DNA of 64,000 nucleotides from Chthoniobacterales bacterium (GTDB taxonomy: Bacteria; Verrucomicrobiota; Verrucomicrobiia; Chthoniobacterales; Chthoniobacteraceae). Shown here one piece after another: positions 7,972 to 45,091 of the stretch. Each line of letters begins with the position of its first letter. Positions within the stretch are counted from its first letter, which is position 1. The notes below the pieces were generated by a model, which saw nothing but the letters and a program-made list of their open reading frames with translations, ran no database searches and was not told the DNA's origin. The stretch is taken from positions 32,001-96,000 of the forward strand of contig JBBQZX010000012.1 of the NCBI GenBank assembly GCA_038207335.1. The letters are read 5' to 3'. The translations under genes were made by a program, and so were the position numbers.

Positions 7972-8093
7972 GGACGGATAGGGGCTTGGCGTGTTGGGGG
8001 GCAGGGACAGAAAAGGGGGGAGCAACCGCGGCGACGACTGGTGGCGTGATTTCGGGCGGATGGGATAGTTACTTCACGAAAGCAATTCCGAAA

Positions 8094-9337: not shown

Positions 9338-9507
9338 GGGGGAAACCGAGAGCGTGTCAGGATATGTCTGTGGGAGGAACAACACCTAACCGTAACGAGC
9401 CCGAAACAATCCCGTCCATGAGGTTGCCGGTCAGATTTTGGAGAAATCCGGTCGCGCAATTTTCTACAAGAGCGAAGAGGCTGCGAACCCCGCTCCCATC
9501 CCAACGC

Positions 9508-10776
9508 CTATTTCTTTCCCGCTTTCCGATATGCGCCCATCTCCGGCGCGTCGGGATTCACCTCGGGACCGAAGTATCGGAGCACGACCAGCGGCTCGGT
9601 CGTGCTGGAATTTTCGAAAGTCACCCCGGCTTTGGCTCCAGTCTCCGTGCAGAAGAACTCATCCTCCGTCAACTCAGTGAAGCGGATGAGCTTTGGGCTA
9701 TTGAGCGGCTGGTTGTTGATTTTCCCAATGCCTTGAACGCAGATAAGTCCATAGGCGCCGTTGTCCTTGATCGTCGCCTTTGCGCCCGGATCGACCGTGA
9801 GTTCCTTGGCCGTGAAAAGCTGCTCCCCATCGACCTTGCCATACACGATCCAGCGATCCACGTATCCTTCGCTGCTGGTATCCGCCACCGCGATCGGCTC
9901 GAGGTAGTGATTCTCCTTGAAGTGCGGATCCACATTCTTCTCCCAGTCGAGTTGCTCCACGATGAAGTCCAAGTCCTTGTGCTTGTTCTTCGGCATGTCC
10001 TTCACCAACAAAGCCCAAGGCACTTCGCGACCTTCTACGAGCGACTGATACATTCCAAAGACATCGCTCCCCCACTGCGGCTCATAGGTGCAGAGCGAGC
10101 CCGGCGCGTGCAGGATGCACGGGTCGATGAGCCAGCCGGTGCCTGCCTTCAGACGGTAGGCCTTGGATAAGTCGAGGATGCCGTTGTCACCTTTGTTCCA
10201 GTTCTCCAGACACTTGCGGACTTGCGCCTTCGTTGTGCCCGGCTCGAAGCCCATGAAGGTATATGGAAAATTGTTTCCGACATTGTTGTGCTGCGGAGGA
10301 AAGTAGTAGCTCTCCGGCTTCCCTTCCTGCCCCACCAGCTTCGCCTGCTTCGCCGACTGGTGCATGTGGTGCGGGATCGGCCCCATGTTATCGAAGAATT
10401 TCGAATACACCGGCCACTTGGAATACTTTTTCCATATCTTGCTTCCAATGAGTGTCGCCCCGCACTCCGCCACGGCTTGTTGCAAAGTGAACCTCTGCTT
10501 GCCAGCGACCACATAGCTCAGACCTTCATCCGGAGTGCGATTGTCATTGGCCGCGGGAGTCGTGCTGGCAAACCACCGCTCGTCGATGCCCCCGCGGTTC
10601 AACCCGTAAGCGTAAAGGTCATCCGGATGGAGTTTCAGCCGCTTGCCGGGCTGAAGAAAGCTGCGCGGCACCCAGCACGGCGCGAGTCTCAACAGACCGC
10701 CGGTGCGAGAAAGCTCGCCCTCCACGGTTTTCTGGACGTTCTTCTTGAGGACTTTAAGGGAGGTGACGGTGTTCAT
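9508..10776 (-). CDS. Conserved cupin protein, mannose-6-phosphate isomerase class I-like
   Basis: PIPHHMHQ...KPESYYF...ILHAPG...YEPQWGSD resembles the type I PMI metal motifs (xQxHP, KxExWY, HA, ExQQxSD); substrate not established. Confidence 0.6.
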   Translation of the reverse strand: MNTVTSLKVLKKNVQKTVEGELSRTGGLLRLAPCWVPRSFLQPGKRLKLHPDDLYAYGLNRGGIDERWFASTTPAANDNRTPDEGLSYVVAGKQRFTLQQAVAECGATLIGSKIWKKYSKWPVYSKFFDNMGPIPHHMHQSAKQAKLVGQEGKPESYYFPPQHNNVGNNFPYTFMGFEPGTTKAQVRKCLENWNKGDNGILDLSKAYRLKAGTGWLIDPCILHAPGSLCTYEPQWGSDVFGMYQSLVEGREVPWALLVKDMPKNKHKDLDFIVEQLDWEKNVDPHFKENHYLEPIAVADTSSEGYVDRWIVYGKVDGEQLFTAKELTVDPGAKATIKDNGAYGLICVQGIGKINNQPLNSPKLIRFTELTEDEFFCTETGAKAGVTFENSSTTEPLVVLRYFGPEVNPDAPEMGAYRKAGKK

Positions 10777-10914: not shown

Positions 10915-12981
10915 CTACCGCCGCGCAGGCGCATTTGCGGCACGGCGTTTGGCTCGATCCCAGTAAATCGACTGGTCGTCTTTCTCCGGCAAATCTCCAC
11001 CGTGCCATTCCTTCAACAAACCGAGATTGTAATACAGCCGGGTGAGCGCGTCGGCGCGCGACTCGCCGCGGAGTGTTTGCTGCCAGAGATGCGCGCGCTT
11101 TTCCTCACTGACGTGCTTGAGAGTTCCCAATCCCAGAAAGCTGAAAACGCTCCGGCTTCCGTCGAAACGATCCAGCGGCGCTTCCACACACCGCAAGTCT
11201 TCACCATACTTCGCCGCAGTCGCCGTGCGGTAGCTGATATCCAGCGCGCGATTTGCCTTCAACGTTCCCGCGCCGAGGTAAAAGTCCGCACGATCCCCCT
11301 TCCCGCGCTCGGCGGAGCATAGTAGCGCGTAATAGACGGCCTCGGCTTTTTTCCACGAATGCCAGTCGCCTGCACGCTCGATTTCGGCGCGATTTTTCTG
11401 AAGCCACAACGCCGCTGCCGCTGCGACCTGCGGAGTCGCGGCAGAGGTCCCACTGCCGTCGAGATCGAGCGCATCGGCACGTTCTTTTCCGCCTTCCTTG
11501 CGGATCGCGAGCCACGGGATATTGGGCGAGTAAGCCGCAATTGGCTGGGCATGCAATTCGCCCTGCTCTTTCACCTGCTCAGGATCGACTTTTCGCATGG
11601 GCCGATAAAGCACCGCGCTGGTGCCGTCCGCGCCGTAGCTGCCGCGCGCGGCCCATTGCAGCAGCGTCCAGGGGCGGAGCACGAGCCGCCAATAATCGTT
11701 TTTCCCGTAGCTGCCACCGCGGGATGTGACTCCCGTGACGCCGACCACCCGCCCGAATGCCGCGGGATACACAGGGCTCGCTGGCAGGATGATCCCCGCG
11801 GGCCGAAAGGGATTTCCGACCATGGAAAAGAAGTCGCTCTCCGCCGCGAACATCGCCGTGCCGCGTTCGTAGGCGGCATTCACCGCATCCGCCCAAGCCT
11901 GCGTCGGCGCGCCTCCGTGGCTCATCGAGATCACGTCGCAATGCTGCTCACGGCTCGCGTAGTCGATGGCGTAGGCGAGTTCCGCGGTATTCAGCGAGAC
12001 GACCCACGGCGCGACCCGCACGGGGACGATCTCGGCGTGCGGTGCGCCCCCGAGGTATCCCGTGTAGCCCGCGACGCCAGGCTGCGGCGGCAGCGTCACG
12101 CGGCGCCCCGCGAGAATGCCGATCGTCCCGAGTCCGTGCGACGCGCGCGCCGCGCCGATGCCGGGCGCATCCGGCGGGCGAAGTCTTTCGGCGCTCATCG
12201 AGCCGGGATTCTCCTCCTCGCGAGTCACGCTCATTTCATACTCGAGGCGCCCGACCGCGTTGGAAAGAGCACCGCGTTTCTTGAGACTCTCAGAACTTTC
12301 CTTCACGAGATTCTCCGGCAGGCCAGCATGGCGCGCATCGTAGCCATTGTCGAGATGCCCGATCCGAATCGCCATGCCGGGAGCAGGGCGGCCGACTCGC
12401 TCACGTGCGCTGGCAAGCTGTGAATAACGATCGCGCAAATACCAGACCGGATCGATCGCCGGGCGACCCGGCGGATCGAACTTCAAGCCGGCTTCGGCAT
12501 CTGAAACCCGGACGATCGGCCAAGCGCTGGAGGGCTTCTTTTTGTAAACGAGCGGCGTCGCGCTATCGCGCAGCATCAGACCGGCTTTGTCCGGCAGCAT
12601 TTCCGCACCCTGCTTCGACGCGAAGCGCGCGAAGGTGCGGTTGGGCTCGAGCAGGATCGGGTAAAAGCCGAGCACCTGTTTCGTCGCGTCCGCGATCTCC
12701 GGCGCGCGAGCGAACAACTGCATCCAGTAAGGGTTCATGAATCCAGTGCGTAACGGCCTCTGGTTGTTCCAAGCCACATACCACTGGCTCCGATCCGCGG
12801 CGGGCGCTGCGAGGACATGGCGAAAATGCCAGCCATCGGCGCTCGCCTTGGTGTCATGAATCTCCGGATCAGGGACTTTCACCAAAACCGTCGATGTGAC
12901 ACGCAAGCTCTCGGTGACACTGCAACCGGAGACGCAAGCCGCGATGGCACCCCACGCGCACCGGACGACGAACGACTTCAT
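10915..12981 (-). CDS. S8 (subtilase) serine peptidase, predicted lipoprotein
   Basis: Lipobox-like IAACVSG-C; catalytic D (GHLDNG), H (SHGLGTIG) and S (GSGTSAATPQVA); ATGA overlap with the upstream gene at 12978-12981. Confidence 0.88.
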   Translation of the reverse strand: MKSFVVRCAWGAIAACVSGCSVTESLRVTSTVLVKVPDPEIHDTKASADGWHFRHVLAAPAADRSQWYVAWNNQRPLRTGFMNPYWMQLFARAPEIADATKQVLGFYPILLEPNRTFARFASKQGAEMLPDKAGLMLRDSATPLVYKKKPSSAWPIVRVSDAEAGLKFDPPGRPAIDPVWYLRDRYSQLASARERVGRPAPGMAIRIGHLDNGYDARHAGLPENLVKESSESLKKRGALSNAVGRLEYEMSVTREEENPGSMSAERLRPPDAPGIGAARASHGLGTIGILAGRRVTLPPQPGVAGYTGYLGGAPHAEIVPVRVAPWVVSLNTAELAYAIDYASREQHCDVISMSHGGAPTQAWADAVNAAYERGTAMFAAESDFFSMVGNPFRPAGIILPASPVYPAAFGRVVGVTGVTSRGGSYGKNDYWRLVLRPWTLLQWAARGSYGADGTSAVLYRPMRKVDPEQVKEQGELHAQPIAAYSPNIPWLAIRKEGGKERADALDLDGSGTSAATPQVAAAAALWLQKNRAEIERAGDWHSWKKAEAVYYALLCSAERGKGDRADFYLGAGTLKANRALDISYRTATAAKYGEDLRCVEAPLDRFDGSRSVFSFLGLGTLKHVSEEKRAHLWQQTLRGESRADALTRLYYNLGLLKEWHGGDLPEKDDQSIYWDRAKRRAANAPARR

Positions 12982-15779
12982 CGCCGGCGCAAATCCGCGC
13001 GTTTGATCGTGTTTGGATCGTTACGATCTATGCGCCAGACGGGGTGGTGAAAGTGGATCACGAAGTCGCCATTGTAAGACGCCGCGGCATCGTCGAACAC
13101 GATCTGCCCGATCTTCGTCCACTCCAGTCCTGTTAGGAATTCGACCCCGAGTTTCCACTTCTTCCCCGAGTCTGAAACCGAGATGTCAAAGACGAGCTTG
13201 CGCTTCGGCTTTGGGTCGGCGCGGTCGTAGATGATCCCCATGATTTCATCACGGAAATCCTGATCGTCTCCACCGAGCTTTGGTGTGTCGGCGGATACCG
13301 TGAGCTTCATGAAACGCGGGCAGGAAGTCGGCGTCTCCTTCGGCTTTCCAAGCTCCGCGATCTCATAGAGCTGCCGCTCGGTGTTCTTGGTGTCCGCGAG
13401 CAGCAGAGTAAGTCCATTGATGAGCAGAAAGACGACATCCTTGCCCCGATTCCACGGCGAGACTGGCGGCGAATTCGTGATGATTGCCTCGCGAATGCTG
13501 TTCGTAAAACTGGCTCCCAAATCCTCCTGTGTAAAGAAGTGCGCCGGACCCTCCAGTGGCACCTCCGAGCCAGAACCTTTAGGGTAGATTTTCCCGACGA
13601 GCGCAAGTGAGCGGTAGTTCCCGCCCCAAGGCTTCGAGCCACCAGTCGAGTAGCGCGCGAGGATGCGTCCTTCCGACCCTGGCGCGAAGAATCCGGTGTA
13701 ACGCGTGTTCTCAGGCGCTCCGGCGATTTTCCAAGTGCCGCTCAGGCAGATGCCCATCGGATGCAGCAGTCGTCGAAAGCCCTTGTTGTCGACGCCCCAG
13801 CGTAGGTCGGCATGCGAGCGCACAGTGCGCTTGGCCGCCTGCCGGAAGATGCGCATCCCAAGCGGGAAAATCCCACGCAACAGGCTGCTGACTGTCTGAG
13901 TATAAACCGGCAACGTCCGCCGATCCGGTCCGCCCCACGCGTTGCCATAGTAAGGAGTCTCAAAGACCGCGCGCTTCACCTCGTCGTAACAGTGAGTCGC
14001 GGTCGGAAGATCGCTTTCGCTCACGTCTTGGTTTCCCGGCGGGAACGGCTCCGGATCGCGCTTGCAATATCCGAACCGACGCCCGAGCGCGAAGATCCAT
14101 GCAATGCCGAATACCGCAATCACACCTACCCCGAGGATCAAGCGAGTGAGCTTATGGAAAGGCTGCGACACCGCCTTCAAATCCGCGGTCGGTAGATTCG
14201 GCGCGATGACGGCGTGGAGCAGGCAAATCGTTATGATGGCAACGATTCCGACAAAGACGCGTGTGAGATTCGAGCTCACCGTCAGTAGCAGTAGTATCGT
14301 GAACATCAGAACTCCCGCGACGAGCAGAAGCCAAAGGGTCTTCCAAGTCGCAGGCTTAAAGTTTGCGAAAGCAATCGCGGCAGGATCGCCTACCAACGGC
14401 ACCGGGTAACCTCCCATCGTGGCGCCGCGTTGCGCACTTGCTTCGATCTCTTCTTTCGTCCAAGGCGGCGCAAGATACGGAAAGCTATTCTGAAACTCCT
14501 TGTCGTTCGTCGTCGCCCGCGGGAACTGCTTCGACTCGGCATAGGATAGCTCCAGCAGCAGCGTCTCTCCAGCATCCGCAAGCGTCTTGGAAACGTCATC
14601 TTCCAACCAGCGCCCATTTGGAAAGCGCGCTGGCTTCGTCAGGTCATAGACCATCACATCCGGCGCGGAGTCGTAGTGCCGGTGCGCCTCGAGCGGGGCG
14701 AGCATCGTAGCCAGCACATCTTCCATGACGGTCGGTTTGTCATGGACTTGCGTGATTACCTTCACATGATCCGCCGGGTGCTTGGTATTGAGATAGCCAA
14801 AACGCGGAAGCTGCGTGCGCAGCGAACGCCCGACATGATCGATCTGCACGCCTTTCGCATCGTGCGTCGTCGCCCACAAAAAGATCGGGCCATGCCGCGC
14901 AGGATCACGAAGCGCGGCGAGCGGGATACTGGTGACGATGCCGACGACATTCCGGCGAAAGAACCGCGGGAAGATGAAAGGATCGTCGAACACGCCGGTC
15001 TGCACATTGATGACACCGCGCTGAAAGGCATTGCCGGAAATACGCACCTTTCCATCCACCAGCTTCTCCTTGGCGACGACGTTCACCTTTCCCGGAATCC
15101 CATCGAATCGCGTGCCCGTGATTTGTGGCTGCGAGGCATCGCCATCCTTCACCAGACCGAGTTCGAACTCCATCTGGGCATCATCCGCGATCGCATCTGG
15201 AGGCGCGATGATCCCGCCATAAAGCGCCTGCATCGAGCGATCCCCCTCGTGCTGCGAAATCAGCGTCCCGCGGCTTGCGAGCGCATCTTTCCATTTGGTT
15301 TCGGCACGGTCTTCGCCCGCTTTGTCCGCCGCCCTTTTAGCCGCGTCCAAGGCTGCCGCGGTCTTCTCGACTTCCTTGTTCAGCGTACCGAGAGTCGCGA
15401 CGTAGTCCCTCCCCTCGCGAGTCAGCGCCTCGTCGAAAAAGCGCACCGGCGGTTGCAAGTCGAGGTGCACACGAAACTTGAACCCTTTCAAATCCAACCG
15501 TGAGACTTGTGTTGGCTGCAAAGCCCGCTGCACGCAGAGACTGATGATGAGCTGATCGCCAGTCGCCGACGGATCGCCTTCGGTCACCAATTTGCCCGCC
15601 TTGTCCACGATGAAAGCGTGCAAGTCCGTGATGTTTGCCGCCGGCGAAGCTTGCACCTGAAAAGGATTCAAGCTCATCGGGTCCGCGTGATCGGAAGCCC
15701 GCGCAGAAGGCAGCAACAGGCAAAAAAGAAGCGCAGCAGCAAACCAACAGGCGCGGGAGGCAACGTGCATGTTTTTCAT
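12978..15779 (-). CDS. DUF4331-like N-terminal domain, about 3 TM helices and a C-terminal catalase-like domain (fusion protein)
   Basis: Signal peptide then SDHADP...NITDLHAF, GVFDDPFIF, QIDHVGR, PDVMVYD...FPNGRWLEDDV, FPYLAPP (DUF4331-type motifs); three hydrophobic stretches; RRLLHPMGICLSG...TGFF...ARYS...RSLALVGK (catalase-like fold motifs). Confidence 0.72.
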   Translation of the reverse strand: MKNMHVASRACWFAAALLFCLLLPSARASDHADPMSLNPFQVQASPAANITDLHAFIVDKAGKLVTEGDPSATGDQLIISLCVQRALQPTQVSRLDLKGFKFRVHLDLQPPVRFFDEALTREGRDYVATLGTLNKEVEKTAAALDAAKRAADKAGEDRAETKWKDALASRGTLISQHEGDRSMQALYGGIIAPPDAIADDAQMEFELGLVKDGDASQPQITGTRFDGIPGKVNVVAKEKLVDGKVRISGNAFQRGVINVQTGVFDDPFIFPRFFRRNVVGIVTSIPLAALRDPARHGPIFLWATTHDAKGVQIDHVGRSLRTQLPRFGYLNTKHPADHVKVITQVHDKPTVMEDVLATMLAPLEAHRHYDSAPDVMVYDLTKPARFPNGRWLEDDVSKTLADAGETLLLELSYAESKQFPRATTNDKEFQNSFPYLAPPWTKEEIEASAQRGATMGGYPVPLVGDPAAIAFANFKPATWKTLWLLLVAGVLMFTILLLLTVSSNLTRVFVGIVAIITICLLHAVIAPNLPTADLKAVSQPFHKLTRLILGVGVIAVFGIAWIFALGRRFGYCKRDPEPFPPGNQDVSESDLPTATHCYDEVKRAVFETPYYGNAWGGPDRRTLPVYTQTVSSLLRGIFPLGMRIFRQAAKRTVRSHADLRWGVDNKGFRRLLHPMGICLSGTWKIAGAPENTRYTGFFAPGSEGRILARYSTGGSKPWGGNYRSLALVGKIYPKGSGSEVPLEGPAHFFTQEDLGASFTNSIREAIITNSPPVSPWNRGKDVVFLLINGLTLLLADTKNTERQLYEIAELGKPKETPTSCPRFMKLTVSADTPKLGGDDQDFRDEIMGIIYDRADPKPKRKLVFDISVSDSGKKWKLGVEFLTGLEWTKIGQIVFDDAAASYNGDFVIHFHHPVWRIDRNDPNTIKRADLRRR

Positions 15780-15809
15780 AAGATGAGTGGTGGTTGAAAG
15801 AGCCAAGAC

Positions 15810-18800
15810 CTAGCGCAAGACCTTCGCCGCGGTTTGCTGCCCGAGCGCGCGGTAGCTCTCCCACTGGATGTCGTCGAAGAATTGATCGAACGTTGGTGTT
15901 TGGGGGAATTTCGGGTTGACCTTTCCGTAGTTGAGAAGGTCCTGGGTCAAACCGTCATTGAGGCCGGGCTTGAAGAGAAGAATCCACGAGACATCCGGGC
16001 TTCCGGCATAAGTCACGCGCGCCAGTGCCGCATGATGCCCGCCTTCGCGCTTGATGTCGTTCAACGTCCCGAGTTGGTCGGGATCCATCCAATCTTGAAT
16101 CCATTGGTCGAGACCGTCGCAATGCTCACCGAGGCTACTCACTATCTGCGCCCACCGATTCATGCACCGTTGGCCTGTCGGCAATGCTTGCTGGGCCGCT
16201 AGCTGCACAGGGTTCAGCGCAGCGTTCGCTTTGTCCCGAATTCCCTTTATATCCAACCATACGATCTCCGCGCGGAAATCTTCGCGCACTTGCTGAGTCA
16301 GCAGCGAGACGTCGTTCCACTGATACTCCACATCTTCACCCGCCTCGCTCACGATCATGAAGCGTACGCGTCGCCGGATCAGCTCGTAGAGCGCCGTGAC
16401 CTCGAAGTGCCCGCCATCGCTTAGGTACCAGAACCAACGCGACGGCCCGTAGAAGCGAGCGCGCCATTCGTCCAGCAACATGCTTTGCGCGCGGAAAACC
16501 GTCACCGGCAGGCGCTTGAGCCTGCGCCACGCCGACTCCGGATACTGACCGGGCCGCTCTTCCTTCCGAATCCCCGAGTCCCACCAATAGCCGAGCCGCA
16601 CATTTGCCAGTCCCATGAAAAGCGACAGTGAGAGCTTTGTGCCGCGCCCGATGCCGGTGGAAAATGCCGCGCCTGAAATCCCGATCCACTGGCCGAGAGT
16701 CAGGCTCTCGACCTCGGCGCTCCCGCTCTCTTTCGACTTCAGGACATGGAAGGCATTCGGATCGCTCGACACGTCCAGCGCATCGAGCGCCGTCAGCGCG
16801 GGCGCTGCTTCCTGCACCCGACGCCTCCCAAAGCTCGGCAGGAGCGGCTTGGAGTCATCCCCATCAACGCCCGCGAGCCAGCGGCGGAGCTTTTGCCAAT
16901 ACGGAAGCGAATCCGGCCGCGACCACCGCGCAAAGTAACGCCGGCCCACGCTGACTCCGTGCGGAGTGATGCACATCGGCAGGCCTTTGCGCTCGCGGAT
17001 GTCGCGCGCCGAGGCCGCATCGACGGTCTCGTTGATGGTGACATTCACGAGATGCAGCGGGCCGCCCTGCTGCTCGGGATGATACTTGTGCCACGGGATG
17101 TCGTCGTTCGGATGGGCGACGCCGACGTCGTGGCCTTCGCTGCTCGAGGAGGCATAGACACGCTCTTCGTTCGATGCGCCTTGGAACGTGCGAGTGAGCC
17201 GCGAGGCGTAGGTCGCCTGCAGCGAGGAGAGATTGAGAAAGTCGAACGCGCGCCCGATCGCGAGCGAGAATAATCCAGTCACGCTGAGGACGAAGACAGC
17301 CCAGCAGGTGCCCGCGAAAGTGAAGACCAGCTTATGCGCGTGGACATCGACGACGAAGATCAGGAACACCGCGAGCGGAATCCCAATCGCCGTGGCGAGG
17401 CCCTGCAACGAGAACTCCTTCTTGCCGCCCGGCGAGAGTGCCTGCTTCGCGTTCATTGCGATTTTTTGTAAAAACGGCATGAGCGGCGCGACCGCAGCTG
17501 CCGCGATCGACAGGCCGCGGACGAGCCCGTGCGTCGCGAAAAGGAGCGCGAAGGTATCGAGCACGACCCACGCGACGAGCGCGGCAAAAATGAGCAGCAC
17601 TTCGCCGAGCGAGCGCAGGACGCGATTCGCCACAATGCCGCCGACCTTTCGCCGCTCGGCTTCGGAATCCGCGCCTTCCGTCGCACCCCAGCGCGCGACT
17701 TCCTGCCACACCCACGCAAGGATGAGCGCCACGGCTGCAACCGCCGCGACGAGCGCACCGTGCGGAATGCCGAGCCCGATCAGCGCGCCCGTGAGCGCCA
17801 CCAGCCACGCGAGCAGCGAGAAGAACGGATAGGGCCGATACGAGCCGATCCGCGGCGCGAGCCAGTAGCTCAGCGTTGCCGGCAGCACAGCCACGCCGAG
17901 CGCCAGCACCGGCAGCCACCACCACGGCGAGAGCGTGATATTCCACACGACCGGGGCCCCCAACTGCGCCCGCAAAAGCGCGTGCAACTGGAACGCGCCC
18001 CAGCGATCCAGCAATCCCCCGCCCCCCGACGGCAGCCACGCGAGCAGGCCGAAGAGCGTGAAAAGCAGCGCGCCGGCGACGAGATAGACGGCGACGAGAT
18101 TGCGCCACAACACGGCGAGGTTCAGGTGCAGGTCGGTCGTGCCGGTCGCGAAAATGTAGTTCGCCTGAGACCGCAGCCACTCTATCGGGGCGGACCATGT
18201 GTCCTTCAAAGTCTCCTGCACGCGCTCGCACGGATCCTTCGCGAGCTTCGTGGACTCGCGCGTGAAAAGCCGCCCGAGAAAACTGCCAGCAAAGCCGCCG
18301 CCGGAGACGGTCGAAAGGATGTCCACCTCACGGATTCGGTTGCGCGCGGCAAGCGCCTGAATCACGCCCAGCGCGAAAGTCGAACTGCGAATACCGCCCC
18401 CCGAAAGCGCCAACCCAACTGTCCGCGCGGGGAGCTTTCGCTCGTCGCGCTCCTCGCCCGCGGGATCGCTAGGTCTCGCGGCTTTCTCGCGCCGGGCGCG
18501 GATCGCCGCCGCTTCGTCCTCCTCGAAACGAGCGGGATACACCGCCGTCAGCGAGTCCTCGATCAGCGTGTCCGCCGCTTTTTCGCTCACCATGTAGATC
18601 GGCGCCACGATGAAGTAGCCCGGGATTTTCGGAAACACAGACGCATCTACGATGCGCAGGCCGTTCACGCCATGGACTCGAAACCGGCTGTCCAGCACCG
18701 CACCGCGATCCTTGAGGTCATCCGTATTTGCCTTCCACGCGTCCGACCCGATCGGGCAGGTGCAAGAGCAATGATGCCCCCACGCCTGCGTCTTGATCCA

Positions 18801-21062
18801 CTCCTCCATCTCCGCCGTCCTATCCTCATACTTGTCGCCCGGCTGAATCTCCCGGACAAATTGCTTCGCGTTCCGCCCATTCACATTCCGCATGAACGCC
18901 ACAGCATCCACCAGCGCCGCGAGGTCGCGCTTGCTGCTCACCAGCTTTTCCTCATTCTCCGCCCACTCCGCCTCGACTGCCTTTCGTTCCGCCTTCAGCG
19001 ACTCCGGCAGAGCCTTTCCAGCCCGAGCCAGCGCCTCACAATCCGCGATCACGCTCGTCCTCCGCGCTCCGATAAGCGGACGAGCCGCCTCTGCCTTTTC
19101 ATTGAAGGCATCGAAGCAAATCTCCGGCATGTCGAAAGGACTCGCTGTCCGCAACCGCACACTCCCGTCGTGATTGCTCGTGTAGGCCTTTAAGATGACC
19201 CAGCTCCACAGCCGGTGCTTGTCCTCCGTCGCGCCGATCTTGTCTTTAAAAAGCTCGCGCGACCAATTCCAATAATAGCCGCGAAAAGCTGCGGGCGCTC
19301 CAAAGGTGAACAAGTCCGGCTCCACCTCATTGGCCTCCGCCGCCTGCTTCGAGCGGCGGATCACCGCCAGCGTTCCGCCATTCGTCGCGTAGAGTCCCGT
19401 CTTCGACTTCTCCCACTCACTGCGCGCTCGGTCGTCCGGATCTCCGGGCTCGAAAGAGACGCTGTTCAGAGTCTCGAAATCCTTGTCCAACTCGCTGACC
19501 ACCGTGACTTCATATCGGTCCTGCAAGTTGCGCCCGACGCCCGGCAGATTGATGCGCAGAGGCTTCTCATCCCGATAGATCACACTGCCATTCCGATCGC
19601 GCAGCGCGCATAGCTCTCCCTTCTCGGTGATAGCCCGCTCGGCTTTCGAAAGTCCCTTGAGAAAAGTGGCATCCTTCGATGCGGCGAGAGCTACCTGCTC
19701 CAAATGACCTCTCTCACTCGCCTCCGCCTGCACCTCACCGATGCCGGAAAGCATGAGTAGCTGCGGCGTATTGAATGCGCCTCCGCAAAGGATGATCTCC
19801 CCGGCGTCTTTCTTCGCAAAGTAAGAGAACCGCTCCCCCCGCGCGCCTTGCTGCACCGGGCTCGCTTCGTATAAGTGCTCACCCCGCGCAAACTCCACGC
19901 CGATCGCTCTCGGCACACCGCTCTCTTTGTCTATCTCAAATAGAACCCGGGTGACATGCACGCCGGTCTCGATCACGAGTCGGTCCGGGTATTTAAATTT
20001 TGTGTTGAGCAGGAACTCGCGCACGCCGAACCGGCGACCGTTCCCCGGCTCTCCTACATCCGTGGCTTCGGTCCCGCCCTCGATGCTGAGCGGGATTAAA
20101 AAAACACCTTCTGGCTTCGCTCGGCGCGTGTTGATGTCATTGAAGTCGATCGCCTGCACGACACGCGACCTCACGATCTGCTGCTTCAGAAACGTGACAA
20201 GTGCGTTATTGCCATGCAGTACGCCCAGCGCGGCGCGTATGATAGCATTGATGAACGGGCGGTCGTTCTTCGCGATCGTCGAGACGAGGAAAGGGTCGAT
20301 CAGATTGGTCGGCACCCATCCCTTGAAGCCATGCCCGCCATCATCCAGCACCGCACGCGGATCCAACAACAACACCACCCAGCGGTAGATTTTGTAAAAG
20401 ATTCCGAGCAGGTTCCGAAAAAAACGGTCGTAGGCCGAGAGATACTGATTTCGCTCCATCTTCGCGAAGTATCCGCGCATGGCACCCGCCCGCCACGAGG
20501 CATCGCCGGTCAGATTTGCGATGTAGTTCCAATCGTTGTCATTCGGGCAGATAGTAATCATCGCATGATGCGCCGTGCATCCGCCGATTCCAGCGGCGCG
20601 CGGGTAGAAAATACCTTGCTTCCTCCCCTCCAAAGGTGCGTCGAGAAACTTCGGCTTCAGCGGCTTCCCAGTATTCGGATCGATGCTCTTGTTATACTTA
20701 TCGTCCTTCTCCTGCGTCGCGTCATCCGCGTGATGCCTCACCGAAAACATCCAGCTAAACTCCTCATCCTCCGACGCCGCCGCATAGTATCCTGGAACCT
20801 TCGTCACCTCACCGACCCCAGCATCAGGGTAAGCTTTCGACTTCTTCTGGACCGGATCCGCTCCGGCTTCGAGCACCAGTACCCGCTTGCCAGCCTCCGC
20901 GAGCCGCGCCGCCAGAGGCCCACCGCCCGCGCCGGAGCCCACGATGATATAATCGAACTTCGAGTTCTCAGGACTCTTCGCGCCTTCAAGAAGATCGGCG
21001 CTTGGATCGTTCGTAGGTGCAACTCCGCTAGCGGGAGTATCGGTGATAATCGGCGGTTCCAT
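15810..21062 (-). CDS. GMC oxidoreductase fused to a membrane patatin/cPLA2-like phospholipase (1750 aa)
   Basis: FDYIIVGSGAGG...VLVLEAG (FAD binding), CGGAFNTPQLLMLSGIG, LPGVGRNLQD, WGHHCSCTCPIG, GLRIVDASVFP; then GLALSGGGIRS, LSTVSGGG, a multi-TM bundle, AISGAA-like GISGAAFS and YLSDGGHFE; a single uninterrupted ORF. Confidence 0.88.
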   Translation of the reverse strand: MEPPIITDTPASGVAPTNDPSADLLEGAKSPENSKFDYIIVGSGAGGGPLAARLAEAGKRVLVLEAGADPVQKKSKAYPDAGVGEVTKVPGYYAAASEDEEFSWMFSVRHHADDATQEKDDKYNKSIDPNTGKPLKPKFLDAPLEGRKQGIFYPRAAGIGGCTAHHAMITICPNDNDWNYIANLTGDASWRAGAMRGYFAKMERNQYLSAYDRFFRNLLGIFYKIYRWVVLLLDPRAVLDDGGHGFKGWVPTNLIDPFLVSTIAKNDRPFINAIIRAALGVLHGNNALVTFLKQQIVRSRVVQAIDFNDINTRRAKPEGVFLIPLSIEGGTEATDVGEPGNGRRFGVREFLLNTKFKYPDRLVIETGVHVTRVLFEIDKESGVPRAIGVEFARGEHLYEASPVQQGARGERFSYFAKKDAGEIILCGGAFNTPQLLMLSGIGEVQAEASERGHLEQVALAASKDATFLKGLSKAERAITEKGELCALRDRNGSVIYRDEKPLRINLPGVGRNLQDRYEVTVVSELDKDFETLNSVSFEPGDPDDRARSEWEKSKTGLYATNGGTLAVIRRSKQAAEANEVEPDLFTFGAPAAFRGYYWNWSRELFKDKIGATEDKHRLWSWVILKAYTSNHDGSVRLRTASPFDMPEICFDAFNEKAEAARPLIGARRTSVIADCEALARAGKALPESLKAERKAVEAEWAENEEKLVSSKRDLAALVDAVAFMRNVNGRNAKQFVREIQPGDKYEDRTAEMEEWIKTQAWGHHCSCTCPIGSDAWKANTDDLKDRGAVLDSRFRVHGVNGLRIVDASVFPKIPGYFIVAPIYMVSEKAADTLIEDSLTAVYPARFEEDEAAAIRARREKAARPSDPAGEERDERKLPARTVGLALSGGGIRSSTFALGVIQALAARNRIREVDILSTVSGGGFAGSFLGRLFTRESTKLAKDPCERVQETLKDTWSAPIEWLRSQANYIFATGTTDLHLNLAVLWRNLVAVYLVAGALLFTLFGLLAWLPSGGGGLLDRWGAFQLHALLRAQLGAPVVWNITLSPWWWLPVLALGVAVLPATLSYWLAPRIGSYRPYPFFSLLAWLVALTGALIGLGIPHGALVAAVAAVALILAWVWQEVARWGATEGADSEAERRKVGGIVANRVLRSLGEVLLIFAALVAWVVLDTFALLFATHGLVRGLSIAAAAVAPLMPFLQKIAMNAKQALSPGGKKEFSLQGLATAIGIPLAVFLIFVVDVHAHKLVFTFAGTCWAVFVLSVTGLFSLAIGRAFDFLNLSSLQATYASRLTRTFQGASNEERVYASSSSEGHDVGVAHPNDDIPWHKYHPEQQGGPLHLVNVTINETVDAASARDIRERKGLPMCITPHGVSVGRRYFARWSRPDSLPYWQKLRRWLAGVDGDDSKPLLPSFGRRRVQEAAPALTALDALDVSSDPNAFHVLKSKESGSAEVESLTLGQWIGISGAAFSTGIGRGTKLSLSLFMGLANVRLGYWWDSGIRKEERPGQYPESAWRRLKRLPVTVFRAQSMLLDEWRARFYGPSRWFWYLSDGGHFEVTALYELIRRRVRFMIVSEAGEDVEYQWNDVSLLTQQVREDFRAEIVWLDIKGIRDKANAALNPVQLAAQQALPTGQRCMNRWAQIVSSLGEHCDGLDQWIQDWMDPDQLGTLNDIKREGGHHAALARVTYAGSPDVSWILLFKPGLNDGLTQDLLNYGKVNPKFPQTPTFDQFFDDIQWESYRALGQQTAAKVLR

Positions 21063-21065
21063 GGC

Positions 21066-24000
21066 TTAGAGGGTCTTCAGAAATACGATCAGGTTCTCCT
21101 TCTCCTCATCTGTCAGCGACTCGCCAAACCAATGCCCGCGATCGAGCACGAAGTCCGGACACTTGCTCGCCGCCATCAACGCCGGACCCGCCTTTTTCGC
21201 AAACACCTCATAAGCCTGCTCGCCGGAGAGATGCTCCTTGTTGATCTTTAAAATGGCGCGAGTAAGGCCCACGAGCGCAGGTGCGACCTTGCCGATCTTC
21301 TTGAGGTCGGGATCGAGGTTCATCAAAAGATTCACCGGCGTGCCGCGCGGGATGGGCCCGAGGTCGATGCCTTTGTAGTCGGCGTTCAACCAAGAGTTTG
21401 GCAGCACCGCCAGGACGGGGTTCACCTGCTTTAGGTGACCGGTGAGAAACTTGTTCACGAGGATGCCCGCGAAGAGTGTCACAAGCGTCGCGGTCACGAA
21501 AACCGCACGTGTAATAAAACGCCATTGTCCGCGCGCGAGCAGCAGGAGAATTCCCGCCAGCGCAACGATCGCAACATACAGCCAGAGCCAGCCACCTTTC
21601 TCGGCGATGACTCCGATCGCCGCCACTCCCACCGCGACCAACAGTAGCAAGATACCCGCGTGTCGCGTGTGGCCTTTCCAGATGAGGAGCGCGAATAGCA
21701 AAGTCAAGACCACCCACGACCAGAAACTCAGAATCGTGAATAGGATTGCGCCAAAGGTCTTGCCTACAAAGCCGACGAGCAGCCCTTGAATGATCGGCTG
21801 AATGAAGCCCGGCTGGAATCGGATGCGAGAATCGACCGGTAGGCGGTAGATGTAGCCGGGATCGTTGGCAGCGGCTTCGCTCCCTTCCGAGCGAATATCT
21901 CCGGGGTGCAGGTAAGTCTTGCCTTCGCGCGTGAAATTCGTCCGCTCCTTGTTCCAGAGCAGCTTGCGAATTGCGTCGTCAAACGCTTCGAGCCGCCCTT
22001 TCACGCTGGGATCTTGGTTGTAGATTCCGAGCGCGTTGTTGTGAAAAAATGGCGCAGTGGCCCAGATGCTTATCAGCGTCGCCGGCCGGAAGTAACCCGG
22101 GCCGCCTATCTTGCGGCCATCGTTGTATTGGTCATTCGTTCCATACGGATCGAACTTCACCGCCGAAGCCTCGACTTTGTAAGGATTGAAGTAACGAATG
22201 TCTCCGACCGACTTCAGCGTTTTGAAGGTCTCCGACGAGTAGTTGTCCCACACATTTCCCCGCATCGCATTCGTCGCCATCGCGCGCCCGGAGTAAGTGC
22301 CGGTGAGAGTGATCGGGATGCGCAGTTCGTTGGAAAGGAAGTTGTCTTTGAGGAATTCGTCCTCCTTTCCTGCCTCCGGCGCTGCGCCAGCGACCACGGC
22401 GATCTTGTCGCGGAAATCTTTCATCGCTGGGCTTGCCCTGAACTCGTCCCAGTGCGTGTATTCCATCGGAAGCGTGTAGATGGGCGGCTTCCCCTCGCCC
22501 GGCTTTGGCGCTTTATCCCAACTAGTGGAGATCGCGCGCTCGAACTGGAGGTCGAAACCTTTCGGCAGCTTGCTCGAATGACAAATGGCGCAGTTATCCA
22601 GGAACACCTTTCGGCCTGTGACAAGCTTGGATCGCGTTTGCTCGTCTTCGATCCACTTCTTGCCGGGAAGTTCGCGAGCGACCTTTCCGCTGGCGTCTAG
22701 GGCTGCCCTCCCATCCGCCGCGCGCACGACTTCCCGCGCATCCTTTAGCTTCATCCCCGACGTGCTTTTTGCCACGATGCCTTTGTAGCCAATGTCGAAG
22801 AACTTCGCCATGTAGGGAACGCGGTAGTTCACGTTCACGTTCCAATAAACCGAGTTCGCGCGTCCGACCTCGATACTGAACGGACGCTGCGGCGTGTAGC
22901 CGAGCACCAGATTTCCAGTCGTGAGCCAATACTCGGGAAAGACGCCGACGTTGTGAGGTACGCGCTCCAACGCGCCCAAGATGCCGATGCTATCTTCGCC
23001 GGGCCCCAACACCATCGGGAAATGCCGCTGCTTGACGGGACCATCCGGGTTGCTGCTCGTCTCGGGGTTCTCGATACTCGGCAGCATCAGGTTCTCGCGG
23101 CTTTGGAGTTCCGATGGCTTTTCGAGCGCGCGCGCAAGACGCGATGGCACGTCGAAGATGGGATTGATGACGTTGGTGTTGTTGATGTGGTCGGTGCTGA
23201 CCAGCGACGTGTCGATCGAGCCGGGTGCCTGGCTTTTCAAAAAATGGTAAAGGAAGTCTGGCTTCATCCGCAGGTTGGCATTGGCCGCCTGCGGGTCCCA
23301 GTATTGCGCGCCGATGATGGAGGAAAGGTTCTCCCACTCTGGTTCCGCGTTATCCACCGGCGGATTCAGCGGATGCTGAGCGACGTGGCAGAAGCCGCAC
23401 GACATCGTCACCCGGAATGGCCGGACTAGCTTCGGGTCGGCGTTAATATTCGTGTCGGTATAATACCGTCCATTGGTGCTTTCGACTTGCTTCTTCCAGT
23501 AGGCGCGCGCCTCCGCGGCGTTTGCTGTCTTGGCGAAAAAATCGGGGTTTAGCATGAGGCGCAACCCGAAGATGCCGCTCGGATAGCCATAGATTGAGGT
23601 ATCCAATCCATCCTGCGGCAGCTTGCTGCGCACGATTTCGGGGATGTAGTCCTTGAAGCTGTCGTCGCGCCTCTGCTGGTTGTCCCAGTCGGCCAGCGTC
23701 ATCCATGGCTCGAAGAGTTGTGTGGGATGGCCGGGAGGGGCCTTCGGCTGATAGACTGGCTTTTCCATCGCCCTGCCTTGCGCGTCGTAGCGTTCAGGCT
23801 CGGGTTCATCGTAGCCGGAACCTTCGTAGGGTAAGATGATCGGTTCGCCGTTGTCATCGCGCGGCGGCGGGGGACGGAGCATCCCGTTCCTCCAGTCGCC
23901 GCCTTTCGGTTGGTCTAGGTAAAGACCGAGGATCGTCTTGGCGGAAGATGTAAAGCCGGGCTGGTTAATCAAACCAGCGCTCTTGAAGCGGTTCGCGCGC

Positions 24001-24518
24001 TGGCGCGAATCCATGAGGATGAGGTAGTCGGTCAGGCCATAGCCATTCTGCTGGAGCCAGTTCCAAAAGGTTTCGTTGCCTCCGCCCCACAGCAGCCAGG
24101 TATTGCGCCCGCGGATTGCATCGCGCTCGCTGTCGCTCAGACCGCTGACTTTTCCTTTCGAGCTTCCATCCTCATCGAAGTCCAGCGGGCCGAATTTTCC
24201 GTCCTTTCCCACCACCCAGTCCATCTTCCAAAACAAGTCGCGCGGCTCCGCAGGAAAGCACTCGGCGGTACGCGGGGTAACTGGCGTTCCGTTGATAGTC
24301 TTCCCACCCATCGCCTCGTCGAGGACTTCGCCGGGGATGGTTCCTTTCGGGTGGTAAGATGGGCGTTCTTGCTTGCTGGCGCTCTCCGCTTGCGCCTTTG
24401 GGTAGGCTGGCGGCGGATCGTAAGTAACGGGTGCGTCATCGCCGAGACTCGTGGAAGCCAGCGCGAGCAGGGCGAGCGCGACGAAGGATTGATTTTGAAG
24501 AAGACTGCGAGTGTTCAT
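21066..24518 (-). CDS. Exported, membrane-anchored di-heme cytochrome c (RoxA/CCP-MauG-like superfamily)
   Basis: Signal peptide from MNTRS (ATG 24518); CGFCH (23385-23399) and CAICH (22578-22592); PATLISIWATAPFFHNN motif; C-terminal GHWFGESLTDEEKENLIVFLKTL; about 4 TM helices inserted near the C-terminus. Confidence 0.8.
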   Translation of the reverse strand: MNTRSLLQNQSFVALALLALASTSLGDDAPVTYDPPPAYPKAQAESASKQERPSYHPKGTIPGEVLDEAMGGKTINGTPVTPRTAECFPAEPRDLFWKMDWVVGKDGKFGPLDFDEDGSSKGKVSGLSDSERDAIRGRNTWLLWGGGNETFWNWLQQNGYGLTDYLILMDSRQRANRFKSAGLINQPGFTSSAKTILGLYLDQPKGGDWRNGMLRPPPPRDDNGEPIILPYEGSGYDEPEPERYDAQGRAMEKPVYQPKAPPGHPTQLFEPWMTLADWDNQQRRDDSFKDYIPEIVRSKLPQDGLDTSIYGYPSGIFGLRLMLNPDFFAKTANAAEARAYWKKQVESTNGRYYTDTNINADPKLVRPFRVTMSCGFCHVAQHPLNPPVDNAEPEWENLSSIIGAQYWDPQAANANLRMKPDFLYHFLKSQAPGSIDTSLVSTDHINNTNVINPIFDVPSRLARALEKPSELQSRENLMLPSIENPETSSNPDGPVKQRHFPMVLGPGEDSIGILGALERVPHNVGVFPEYWLTTGNLVLGYTPQRPFSIEVGRANSVYWNVNVNYRVPYMAKFFDIGYKGIVAKSTSGMKLKDAREVVRAADGRAALDASGKVARELPGKKWIEDEQTRSKLVTGRKVFLDNCAICHSSKLPKGFDLQFERAISTSWDKAPKPGEGKPPIYTLPMEYTHWDEFRASPAMKDFRDKIAVVAGAAPEAGKEDEFLKDNFLSNELRIPITLTGTYSGRAMATNAMRGNVWDNYSSETFKTLKSVGDIRYFNPYKVEASAVKFDPYGTNDQYNDGRKIGGPGYFRPATLISIWATAPFFHNNALGIYNQDPSVKGRLEAFDDAIRKLLWNKERTNFTREGKTYLHPGDIRSEGSEAAANDPGYIYRLPVDSRIRFQPGFIQPIIQGLLVGFVGKTFGAILFTILSFWSWVVLTLLFALLIWKGHTRHAGILLLLVAVGVAAIGVIAEKGGWLWLYVAIVALAGILLLLARGQWRFITRAVFVTATLVTLFAGILVNKFLTGHLKQVNPVLAVLPNSWLNADYKGIDLGPIPRGTPVNLLMNLDPDLKKIGKVAPALVGLTRAILKINKEHLSGEQAYEVFAKKAGPALMAASKCPDFVLDRGHWFGESLTDEEKENLIVFLKTL

Positions 24519-25229: not shown

Positions 25230-25461
25230 GAGTCTCAGCAAGAAATGACGACGCGCCCGAAAGGGCGCGCTCGCTAACCGTCTGAAATGACTCAAATAAA
25301 AGCAGAAGATGACAACGCGAGGGATGCTTCCTCGTGGAAATCCAGTGGTGGGACGGTTCTTCGCACTCTCTCCCGGCGTCGTCTTTTTCCTTTGGTCGCT
25401 GGCCGCCGGCATCTTCCTCTTCACTTGTGCCGAGTGATTGCAGTGGTATCTCTCCCCCTCC

Positions 25462-31821: not shown

Positions 31822-31912
31822 GGGTTTTGTGTTCTCCAGAGTCGTGCGAGTTGCGATCGGCATCGGGAAGAGCGGAGCCACGGAGGCAGATCGAAAGGAA
31901 CAGCAGGGCACC

Positions 31913-38241: not shown

Positions 38242-38319
38242 GTTGCGGCCTGTAAAGGCGAATCGAGTGAAACACAAGCGCGGGCTTGGAAGGCGCGCGC
38301 GAGCCCTTACGCTCACCGC

Positions 38320-38691
38320 ATGAATCCCCGTTTTCTCGGCCTTTACACCGCCATTTATCACGTCGCCGATCTCGCGCGGGCGAAGGCCTGGCATTCGCGG
38401 ATGCTGGGCTTGGCGCCGTATTTCGATGAGCCGTTTTACGTCGGCTTCAATGTCGGCGGACACGAGCTGGGGCTGCTGCCGGCAGGCGATGCGAAGAACC
38501 CAGGCGTGGTCGCGTATTGGGGCGTAAAGGACATCCGTGCGACGCTCGATGCTTTGCTTGCGGAGGGCGCAACCGCGCACGAGGGCGTGCAGGACGTGGG
38601 CGAAGGGATCAAGGTCGCCACCGTGCTCGACAGCGAGGAGAATGTGTTCGGCCTCATCGAGAATCCCCACTTTCCCGCGAAGCCCGAATGA
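38320..38691 (+). CDS. VOC family (glyoxalase/bleomycin resistance) protein
   Basis: TAIYHVADLARAKAW...FDEPFYVGFNVGGHELGL...YWGV.DI...DVGEGIKVATVLDSEENVFGLIENP. Confidence 0.88.
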   Translation: MNPRFLGLYTAIYHVADLARAKAWHSRMLGLAPYFDEPFYVGFNVGGHELGLLPAGDAKNPGVVAYWGVKDIRATLDALLAEGATAHEGVQDVGEGIKVATVLDSEENVFGLIENPHFPAKPE

Positions 38692-44989: not shown

Positions 44990-45038
44990 AATTTTATGAG
45001 ATAAAGATTCGAGTGAGCGGTGGTGGTGTCAACGACAA

Positions 45039-45067: not shown

Positions 45068-45091
45068 CTGCCACGTTGAGCGGAAACGGAA

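Follow-up and report, generated by a model that had tools for sequence, protein, structure and literature searches.

The 64,000-nucleotide stretch analysed here (the window: contig JBBQZX010000012.1 of a Chthoniobacterales bacterium, positions 32,001 to 96,000 of the forward strand) carries four closely packed genes, g1 to g4 (Table 1), which encode a large di-haem cytochrome c (g1), a GMC flavoprotein fused to a patatin-type lipase (g2), a DUF4331 protein joined through three hydrophobic helices to a domain with a modelled catalase fold (g3) and a subtilase of the S8 family (g4). A preliminary description had seen in them an operon of fusion proteins for membrane lipid oxidation. Its layout of four co-directional genes was reproduced from the open reading frames (ORFs): g1 and g2 are 3 base pairs (bp) apart, g2 and g3 are separated by 3 bp if g3 starts at a TTG (942 amino acids, aa) or by about 30 bp if it starts at the ATG at 15779 (933 aa), which is the likely start, and g3 overlaps g4 by 4 bp. 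Such tight gene spacing is typical of operons. For g1 we chose the ATG preceding the signal peptide, the open frame itself extending to 24701. A scan for promoters and terminators gave counts no higher than in shuffled sequence. All domain calls of the preliminary description were likewise recovered, that of the catalase-like domain by fold match only, as were the membrane-helix bundles of g1, g2 and g3 (by hydropathy) and a lipobox-like VSGC in g4 (by eye).

Table 1. Genes, domains and motifs of the g1 to g4 locus (window coordinates)
Feature	Length or residues	Position	Strand	Basis
g1, di-haem cytochrome c	1150 aa	21066-24518	minus	ORF
g1, first haem c motif CGFCH	374-378	23385..23399	minus	regular expression
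g1, second haem c motif CAICH	643-647	22578..22592	minus	regular expression
g1, four hydrophobic helices	921-1024	21447..21758	minus	hydropathy
g2, GMC::patatin fusion	1750 aa	15810-21062	minus	ORF
g2, GMC oxidoreductase domain	~30-860	18483..20975	minus	Pfam above cut-off
g2, patatin/cPLA2-like lipase	878-1750	15813..18431	minus	Patatin 26.1 bits and motifs
g2, ~8 hydrophobic helices	982-1273	17244..18119	minus	hydropathy scan
g3, signal peptide, DUF4331, three helices and catalase-fold domain		12978-15806	minus	ORF
g3, DUF4331 domain, predicted periplasmic	38-480	14367..15695	minus	PF14224
g3, three hydrophobic helices	486-576	14079..14351	minus	hydropathy scan
g3, modelled catalase-fold domain	587-942 (356 residues)	12981..14048	minus	model and fold search
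g4, S8 subtilase, lipoprotein-type N-terminus	688 aa	10915-12981	minus	ORF

That g1, g2 and g3 belong together is borne out by their neighbourhood in other genomes. A scan of one genome per species with g1 gave 79 loci, drawn from the best 80 of 150 confirmed matches, and these come from at least eight phyla (Verrucomicrobiota, Myxococcota, Pseudomonadota, Acidobacteriota, Nitrospirota, Methylomirabilota/Rokubacteria, Eremiobacterota and Bdellovibrionota). With the parts of the window as tblastn queries, g1 was found in all 79 loci, GMC in 69, the patatin part in 24, DUF4331 in 12, the C-terminal domain of g3 in six and S8 in none, counts that miss distant relatives and are shortened by contig ends. 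A GMC gene follows g1 within 600 bp and on the same strand in 52 of the 70 loci that have at least 1.5 kb after g1; of the other 18, 11 have it at another place in the locus and in seven no GMC gene was found. The conserved core is g1 plus a GMC enzyme. Both these 79 loci and the 80 loci of the metagenome scan described below are best-scoring rather than random samples, and the relatives considered next are not independent of one another.

Within 41 related genomes (the window's own included) distribution is patchy, g3 being present in six and g1 in nine; in all five relatives that hold g3 (G005:C39, G008:C10, G013:C94, G021 over two contigs, and G006:C39), g1 and g2 adjoin it in the same order. 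G006:C39 has GMC and patatin as separate ORFs (648 and 946 aa) and a catalase-fold gene about 139 kb away, and G013 encodes DUF4331 and the catalase-fold part in two neighbouring ORFs. The closest metagenomic relative (L089, 75% identity) has g1, g2 and g3 in the order of the window. On plasmid pOM4 of Mesorhizobium onobrychidis all five domain types of g1 to g3 are neighbours, partly unfused: g1 (annotated ‘hypothetical protein’, 1032 aa) and a GMC::patatin protein (‘GMC oxidoreductase’, 1562 aa), on the opposite strand HupE/UreJ, DUF4198 and a 429-aa DUF4331 protein, and then a 357-aa catalase-fold protein (43.5% identity), the last two also annotated as hypothetical. Plasmid pRlX4 of Rhizobium johnstonii carries a row made up of an NADH:flavin oxidoreductase, di-haem peroxidase-family cytochromes, g1 (929 aa), GMC (597 aa) and patatin (966 aa), and g1 relatives occur in 21 plasmid records altogether, all of them rhizobial. 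The co-occurrence of these domains in other genomes, fused or split, on which the preliminary description had staked its proposal, is found across phyla, and its notion of a membrane-tethered unit built from fusions is borne out by a g1-g2-g3 order that recurs in relatives and across many phyla. That the four genes are mere neighbours, unrelated in function, is, to our minds, hardly credible. In its favour stands that g4 is not conserved with the others (see below), but for g1 to g3 it is already contradicted by the synteny counts, namely by the conserved order across phyla, the existence of fused as well as split forms and gaps of 3, 3 to 30 and −4 bp.

What accompanies the core elsewhere was read from longest-ORF calls, with antisense ORFs at times replacing real genes in the ORF clustering. 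Lipase-type genes lie near it in 39 of the 79 loci and, according to ORF clusters and domain scans, come from four unrelated families: patatin (fused or separate), Tle1-like DUF2235 (six loci), DUF900 (five) and ABHD18 (three). Genes of haem peroxidase type (catalase-fold or DyP-like) are near the core in 23 of 79; by family, the haem accessories are the C-terminal domain of g3 (six loci), DyP-like proteins (15) and a catalase-related family of about 400 aa (13). The DyP-like neighbour scores 29.2 bits with Dyp_perox_C and reaches E 7e-24 with TIGR01413, which is under the cut-off of that model, and the profile of the ~400-aa family hits 1u5u, the coral allene oxide synthase, with E 4.6e-6 and 3e4w with E 0.021. 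Comparison by hhalign found no relation between this allene-oxide-synthase-like family and the catalase-fold family of g3 (probability 0.3), and judging from their sequences we treat them as two separate catalase-type families. Two further neighbours are unnamed, c2 (~150 aa, 19 loci) and c5 (~433 aa, 15 loci). Where the flanks span at least 6 kb on the upstream and 8 kb on the downstream side (49 loci), GMC is found in 46, a lipase in 29, a haem accessory in 17 and DUF4331 in 13, and 39 of them hold at least one accessory (lipase, haem) or DUF4331.

A side observation from the same loci is a four-gene module beside the g1-GMC core that comprises c2, c5, the DyP-like protein (~500 aa) and the allene-oxide-synthase-like protein (~400 aa); it is present in L030, L035, L038, L041, L044, L049, L052, L054, L055, L065, L066, L069 and L084, and the DyP-like and allene-oxide-synthase-like proteins appear fused in L069 and L085. 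In L089, a few kb downstream of g1-g2-g3, a second g1 paralogue (785 aa) is followed by a c2-like gene of 147 aa (14866-17695).

As to the individual proteins, g1 is, on its structural model, a distant member of the di-haem peroxidase/MauG/RoxA fold group. The cysteines and histidines of its two haem motifs (C374, C377, H378, C643, C646 and H647) are invariant in an alignment of 55 sequences, and the model built from these (predicted local distance difference test, pLDDT, 83.4; predicted template modelling score, pTM, 0.86) places the helices at residues 903-1025. A further invariant residue, His1129, is a candidate for the second axial ligand of haem 2, the position that His641 occupies in RoxA. 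In the VIA structural search, alignments of 240-397 residues were solely to di-haem enzymes, the other rows being membrane helices, with middling Z scores of 6.5-8.0: hydrazine synthase gamma (5c2v_C, 8.0), MauG (3l4m_A, 7.6), YhjA (9qdt_A, 7.5), BccP (3o5c_A, 6.9), RoxA (4b2n_B, 6.7; at 397 residues the longest alignment) and a MauG-like copper-homeostasis protein (6e1c_B, 6.5). Other searches gave less: Foldseek with the whole model against the Protein Data Bank (PDB) returned membrane-helix look-alikes alone, at E 0.4 or worse, a profile of the 55 sequences run against PDB sequences returned generic CXXCH cytochrome matches alone, and phmmer of g1 against the PDB returned no match. Family matches are weak (RoxA-like_Cyt-c, PF21419, 18.6 bits; NF040606, 28.1 bits against a cut-off of 150). 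The label of RoxA-type di-haem protein given in the preliminary description is not supported by NCBIfam: g1 scores 14.6 bits with RoxC (cut-off 900) and matches neither RoxA nor RoxB among the NCBIfam rubber oxygenases, whose equivalog cut-offs are 900-1000 bits. Since the VIA alignments run to residue 1150, the conserved C-terminal 100 residues would be part of the haem fold, and since this fold resumes after the helices, the four helices are probably an insertion with both ends in the periplasm. They are missing from homologues of about 850 aa (consensus of the 55-sequence alignment), and in a FastTree phylogeny of 66 sequences a branch whose local support is 100 separates the 13 insertion-bearing rows, the window included, from all others; these 13 stem from Verrucomicrobiota, Myxococcota and Pseudomonadota. 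Homologues of g1 number 1303 among 7999 scored candidates. The window's own genome has a second g1 paralogue (930 aa; contig C25, 9608-12400, minus), around which GMC, lipase and DUF4331 were not found within 20 kb; a thermolysin-type metallopeptidase of family M4 lies about 80 bp downstream of it, so that a protease again comes after a g1-type gene.

Two groups of characterised di-haem enzymes invite comparison. RoxA is a secreted, soluble enzyme that cleaves polyisoprene, and we do not know of g1 carriers as rubber degraders. RoxA, RoxB and RoxC (4b2n; NF050033, NF050034, NF051462) resemble g1 as large di-haem enzymes with long insertions in a peroxidase/MauG fold; they differ in that g1 scores far under their NCBIfam cut-offs and is, in the window, membrane-inserted. 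The second group consists of PA2077 (10S-dioxygenase) and PA2078 (7,10-diol synthase) of Pseudomonas aeruginosa, also termed ‘FadCcp’, which are likewise di-haem CXXCH relatives of cytochrome c peroxidases and RoxA and which turn long-chain fatty acids into oxylipins (PMC4496055). Smaller di-haem cytochromes that meet NF040606 (204-207 bits), often paired like PA2077 and PA2078, adjoin the g1-GMC core in seven loci. We set g1 itself apart from the Pseudomonas pair by length, NF040606 score and description: it is about twice as long, reaches the 28.1 bits given above, has four membrane helices in its clade and is partnered with GMC, whereas the abstract of PMC4496055 mentions no such partner for the diol synthase operon.

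The GMC part of g2 is well supported by Pfam (GMC_oxred_N 41.8 bits, cut-off 23; GMC_oxred_C 76.6 bits, cut-off 24.6), and its GSGAGGG motif for flavin adenine dinucleotide (FAD) and its GHH are kept in 13 of 14 aligned g2 sequences, the exception being a garbled and probably frameshifted ORF. Among solved structures its sequence comes closest to fatty acid photodecarboxylases (E ~3e-23, 85 bits), with alcohol oxidase (E 8e-18) and choline dehydrogenase further off, a likeness that we take as a lead rather than as a functional assignment. Since GMC and cytochrome c subunits are a known pairing and g1-GMC adjacency is very tight, one might think of a respiratory-type dehydrogenase in which GMC oxidises a soluble substrate and hands electrons to the di-haem cytochrome, as three-subunit FAD-dependent sugar dehydrogenases do; a GMC gene next to that of a c-type cytochrome is also what is described for three-subunit FAD dehydrogenase-cytochrome c complexes such as that of the Collimonas GMC oxidoreductase (PMC12542777). 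We regard this as very improbable for the g1 set. Of 25 stand-alone GMC partners inspected by eye, 23 start a few residues before the FAD motif and have no signal peptide, and g2, in which no signal peptide was found either, has its leaderless GMC domain fused to a membrane lipase. The known complexes differ further in having a small subunit of the twin-arginine translocation (Tat) type, for which no candidate was found among the window genes and the small neighbours examined (no Tat motif in these neighbours, c2 included), and in that g1 is an enzyme-like protein of 850-1200 aa rather than a small electron carrier. The membrane would also separate the flavin from the haems, and the g1 membrane helices showed no invariant histidine able to hold haem b. 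That GMC partners are mostly leaderless argues against a simple flavoprotein-to-cytochrome chain and favours stepwise action, from both sides, on a membrane-soluble substrate. The remaining two of the 25 have a twin-arginine-like leader (L039 14730-16715 and L056 7462-9531) and are atypically placed relative to g1, and the membrane side of the flavoenzyme may differ between lineages.

The second half of g2 has the make-up of a cPLA2/patatin lipase. Its Patatin score lies just below the cut-off of 27.7 bits, with the first 47 profile positions alone matching, and a separate patatin homologue in locus L076 reaches 34.8 bits; the motifs are GGGIR at residue 888 and DGG at 1549-1551. In the alignment of g2 homologues GGG[IV]RS is kept in 13 of 14 sequences and both Ser-Gly-Gly and the Asp of SD[GA]GH in 14 of 14, one homologue having DAG instead of DGG. 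Oxyanion motif (GGGxR), nucleophilic serine and DGG aspartate are thus those of cPLA2 and patatin lipases, from which g2 differs in that its catalytic domain is interrupted by about eight helices, placed between the Ser and Asp motifs, and is fused to GMC. This fusion is kept in 13 homologues, the split forms being those of relative G006 and of the Rhizobium johnstonii plasmid.

In g3 the DUF4331 domain scores 24.8 bits (cut-off 27) in our scan; PF14224 appears in the precomputed annotation of the window's own protein and of 30 further fused homologues, and homologue L080 scores 37 bits. The signal peptide ends in SARA at a predicted cleavage site and is followed by SDHADP (S38-P43), invariant in 7 of 7 g3 sequences. 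An X-D-H-x-D-P sequence after the signal peptide was read by eye in 20 of 24 DUF4331-type N-termini, as (A/G) then SDHADP in 14 and as ADHNDP in six, the remaining four being one C-domain-only protein and three over-extended ORF starts. A histidine as residue 3 of a mature protein is an amino-terminal copper/nickel-binding arrangement, and the mature X-Asp-His end of DUF4331 may accordingly be a metal-binding tip of the copper/nickel type. As the public call of the g3 gene (P0241, 899 aa) begins past the signal peptide and the invariant SDHADP, the deposited protein is probably too short at its N-terminus. With three helices, an odd number, between them, the C-terminal domain of g3 would be cytoplasmic and the DUF4331 domain periplasmic.

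With this tip in mind one may ask whether the whole set serves metals: g1 might act on a protein partner such as DUF4331 in the manner of MauG or MbnH, or the set might handle copper or nickel together with HupE/UreJ, tetratricopeptide repeat (TPR) and DUF4198 proteins, flavoenzyme and lipase being secondary. The X-Asp-His ends speak for it, as do the MauG and copper-homeostasis structures among the fold matches of g1 and the neighbours of the core, which include DUF4331 in 17, HupE/UreJ-2 in 10 and TPR in four of the 79 loci, with DUF4198 and HupE on pOM4. HupE/UreJ-2 permeases with metal-catching N-terminal domains (anglerases) have been described (PMC12537917), in whose available text DUF4331 is not mentioned; HupE/UreJ-2, TPR and DUF4198 genes accompany our cluster elsewhere, but those domains take the metal through His1 rather than through His3 as the DUF4331 tip would, and in g3 the fusion partner of DUF4331 across the membrane is a catalase-fold domain predicted to be cytoplasmic, the window encoding no permease. 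Nonetheless, a metal-linked system as the primary role strikes us as very doubtful: the strongest partner of g1 is GMC (69 of 79) and not DUF4331, lipases are commoner neighbours than metal genes, and the catalase-fold domain to which DUF4331 is fused is also found fused to GMC, patatin and SRPBCC. DUF4331 brings a separate and probably metal-binding module (HupE/UreJ, TPR, DUF4198) to the core.

The C-terminal domain of g3 has, according to its model (pLDDT 72.9, pTM 0.80), a catalase fold. Foldseek gave 44 matches at E of 0.001 or below, the rows shown being all catalases or catalase-related, with 3e4y, the 33-kDa catalase-related protein of Mycobacterium avium, on top (E 9e-6). VIA aligned 172-205 residues at Z 9.9-11.1, and 50 of the 50 rows shown are catalases or catalase-related, among them allene oxide synthase (1u5u, 3dy5) and chanoclavine synthase; the ESM Atlas lists a Catalase cluster at 0.91. 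The small (~350 aa) catalase-related proteins 3e4w and 3e4y and the coral allene oxide synthase thus share the modelled fold (VIA Z ~10) but show no detectable sequence relation to the g3 domain, phmmer of g3 against the PDB likewise giving no match. Of 121 sequences of the family, 119 keep His96 in FRRLLHPxG and 114 keep Tyr325 in SYNGD (four have His), and these motifs presumably correspond to the distal-His and proximal-Tyr motifs of catalases, an equivalence based on motif likeness and alignment ranges, so that the haem ligands are putative; His332 and His335 are kept in 121 and 120 of 121, respectively. Most relatives of the domain are stand-alone proteins of about 356 aa; together they form a large unnamed family, with 2933 homologues detected in 5343 candidates and no Pfam domain in any of the 120 family members listed. 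Longer proteins that carry the domain (518-1649 aa) gave 133 matches, and among the 120 of these that were listed, by a count made by eye, 31 have a precomputed DUF4331 (mostly 860-990 aa), one (994 aa) GMC_N and GMC_C, one (649 aa) Patatin and four (529-532 aa; P0353, P0354, P0355, P0357) PF10604, Polyketide_cyc2/SRPBCC. Domains of the SRPBCC type bind hydrophobic ligands, and this fusion is a possible handle on the ligand of the unnamed family. A fusion of a catalase-fold domain to a partner of a presumed pathway is also seen in coral allene oxide synthase-lipoxygenase, from which g3 differs in that its partner is not a lipoxygenase but a periplasmic DUF4331 across three helices. In metagenomes, g3 alone as the query gave no relative, and the family alignment gave 80 loci; the 33 of at least 8 kb hold GMC in 12, g1 in 11, the patatin part in 11, DUF4331 in five and HupE in five, and the gene after the catalase-fold gene is HupE-like in L092 and L093.

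Taken together, we tentatively read g1 to g3 as a widespread envelope gene set for fatty-acid hydroperoxide (oxylipin-type) chemistry on membrane acyl chains, a reading drawn from sequence comparisons that we consider possible rather than probable. Its proteins would face both sides of the inner membrane: with topology assigned from hydropathy, the g1 haems and the DUF4331 domain would point to the periplasm, and the GMC domain, both lipase halves and the catalase-fold domain to the cytoplasm. The lipase may release from a phospholipid an acyl chain that is unsaturated or has already been oxidised, the di-haem enzyme g1 may oxygenate or peroxidise the chain much as PA2077 and PA2078 do with oleate, the catalase-fold domain may convert the hydroperoxide in the way of catalase-related allene oxide synthases, lyases or peroxidases, and the GMC enzyme may oxidise a hydroxyl or aldehyde group so formed; the tip of DUF4331, which reads Ser-Asp-His once the signal peptide is removed, would be a site for copper or nickel. 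We favour lipids because four unrelated lipase families as well as two unrelated catalase-type families and DyP-like proteins have been recruited to the same core, because the catalase-fold domain occurs fused to GMC, patatin and SRPBCC, and because there is precedent in that catalase-related proteins convert fatty-acid hydroperoxides and di-haem peroxidase relatives oxygenate oleate. The oleate case is that of Pseudomonas aeruginosa as outlined in PMC4496055, PMC5155153 and PMC6377657.

Several points weigh against oxylipin-type chemistry. The enzyme families involved are all broad, and function does not follow from a common fold; g1 is far removed from both RoxA and the NF040606 peroxidases, with fold matches that are middling. 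None of 28 members of the catalase-fold family matches Pfam Catalase (PF00199) at E of 10 or below and a profile search of PDB sequences with the family gave no match, so haem binding by this domain is itself presumptive. Most of the 33 long catalase-fold loci lack the core and have varied neighbours, and 10 of the 49 well-flanked g1 loci hold no lipase, haem accessory or DUF4331. The proposed steps lie on opposite membrane sides, which means that intermediates would have to cross; many carriers are not known to us to make polyunsaturated lipids; and DUF4331, HupE and DUF4198 point to metals, not lipids.

Much of the evidence would also suit repair in place of synthesis, with the same enzymes removing and detoxifying peroxidised membrane lipids: the lipase would excise oxidised chains, catalase-fold or DyP-like proteins and the periplasmic di-haem peroxidase would reduce hydroperoxides, and GMC would oxidise hydroxy products. 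In animals the patatin-type iPLA2-beta removes peroxidised phospholipids, and the haem families that recur near the core are all peroxide-handling folds (di-haem peroxidase, catalase-related, DyP); enzymes on both membrane faces, as the predicted topology has it, would be apt for damage control, and the NADH:flavin oxidoreductase of the Rhizobium johnstonii cluster is of the old-yellow-enzyme type, a family that reduces reactive enals. Even so we think repair rather unlikely, given that no oxidative-stress regulator was seen adjoining the cluster in the window, that the patchy spread (nine of 41 related genomes) fits an accessory trait better than basic membrane upkeep and that a di-haem peroxidase needs an electron donor, of which none is conserved nearby.

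Returning to oxylipin-type chemistry, a bolder version may be envisaged in which the window joins two widespread sets, the di-haem/GMC/lipase set and the DUF4331 ‘metal-tip’ set, and in which g3, by coupling a copper- or nickel-binding periplasmic domain via three helices to a cytoplasmic catalase-fold haem enzyme, makes the whole a metal-dependent, membrane-spanning machine that produces or controls lipid peroxides. We put this forward as a distinctly unlikely but attractive scenario; if true, it would be a bacterial counterpart to the eukaryotic lipase/peroxidase control of lipid peroxidation. What is new in the window is the g3 fusion across the membrane, which ties the DUF4331 set to the catalase-fold family and, by way of that family, to the lipid-enzyme core. 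In the literature outside subscription journals our search found no published description of the gene set and no paper on DUF4331, in keeping with the earlier statement that no characterised system has this composition. To our knowledge, what is known of oxylipin and lipid-peroxide biology in bacteria comes from very few systems, with the Pseudomonas aeruginosa diol synthase as the main example. The carriers are soil and water bacteria including methanotrophs, nitrifiers, rhizobial plasmids, Pseudomonas and Sorangium, and the set brings together five families without known role: the large di-haem cytochrome, the membrane-split lipase fusion, the catalase-fold family (at least 2933 proteins), DUF4331, and c2 with c5. 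If a function were found for the core, thousands of genes now called ‘hypothetical’ could be annotated, a physiological substrate would be known for bacterial DyP and catalase-related proteins, and the role of DUF4331 would become clear. The system is directly testable in culturable carriers, candidates being Mesorhizobium onobrychidis OM4, Rhizobium johnstonii or R. leguminosarum with their plasmids, Labrys miyagiensis NBRC 101365, Paraburkholderia sp. GAS41 and Crenobacter oryzisoli.

The fourth gene stands apart. That g4 is an S8 protease is clear from Pfam (Peptidase_S8 61.7 bits, cut-off 21.8) and from HLDNG, SHGLGT and GTSAATP, which like its lipobox were read by eye in the translation. 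An S8 gene was found in none of the 79 g1 loci, in none of the 40 relatives (the window's genome being alone among the 41) and in none of the five relatives that hold g1 to g3, and in L089 the gene that overlaps the g3 stop codon encodes a 620-aa Amidohydro_2 protein, not S8. On these conservation counts we reject the earlier idea of the protease as a dedicated maturation factor; in the window's genome co-expression of g4 is probable, but the gene is no part of the conserved system. A sporadic link to the catalase-fold gene is kept, as a g4-like S8 gene follows it in two of the 80 metagenome loci (L099, 35% identity over 403 residues in a 1199-aa protein; L097, at the contig end). PADLOC 2.0 gave a weak subtilase match for g4 (E 0.0058) and no defence-model match for g1, g2 or g3.

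Downstream of g4, at a distance of 138 bp, lies an ORF of 422 aa (9508-10776, minus) that adjoins a XylR-type regulator and that we left out of the cluster, as it has no Pfam or PADLOC match and no counterpart in any locus fetched. The regulator (XylR/AraC type, 8135-9385) in turn adjoins a 2058-aa protein with autotransporter-associated PATR repeats and a PEP-CTERM end (1849-8025, minus). On the other side of g1, the regions 25438-29337 and 29407-38670 form a two-partner-secretion neighbourhood that includes two large exoproteins with a two-partner-secretion domain (1299 aa, plus; 1600 aa, minus), a transporter of the ShlB/FhaC type (31913-33871) and a TPR-CHAT protein (29407-31911). Farther on, a 972-aa PSCyt1/PSCyt2/PSD1 protein is paired with a 509-aa DUF1501 protein (42071-46621, minus), a pair that is common in Planctomycetes and Verrucomicrobia.

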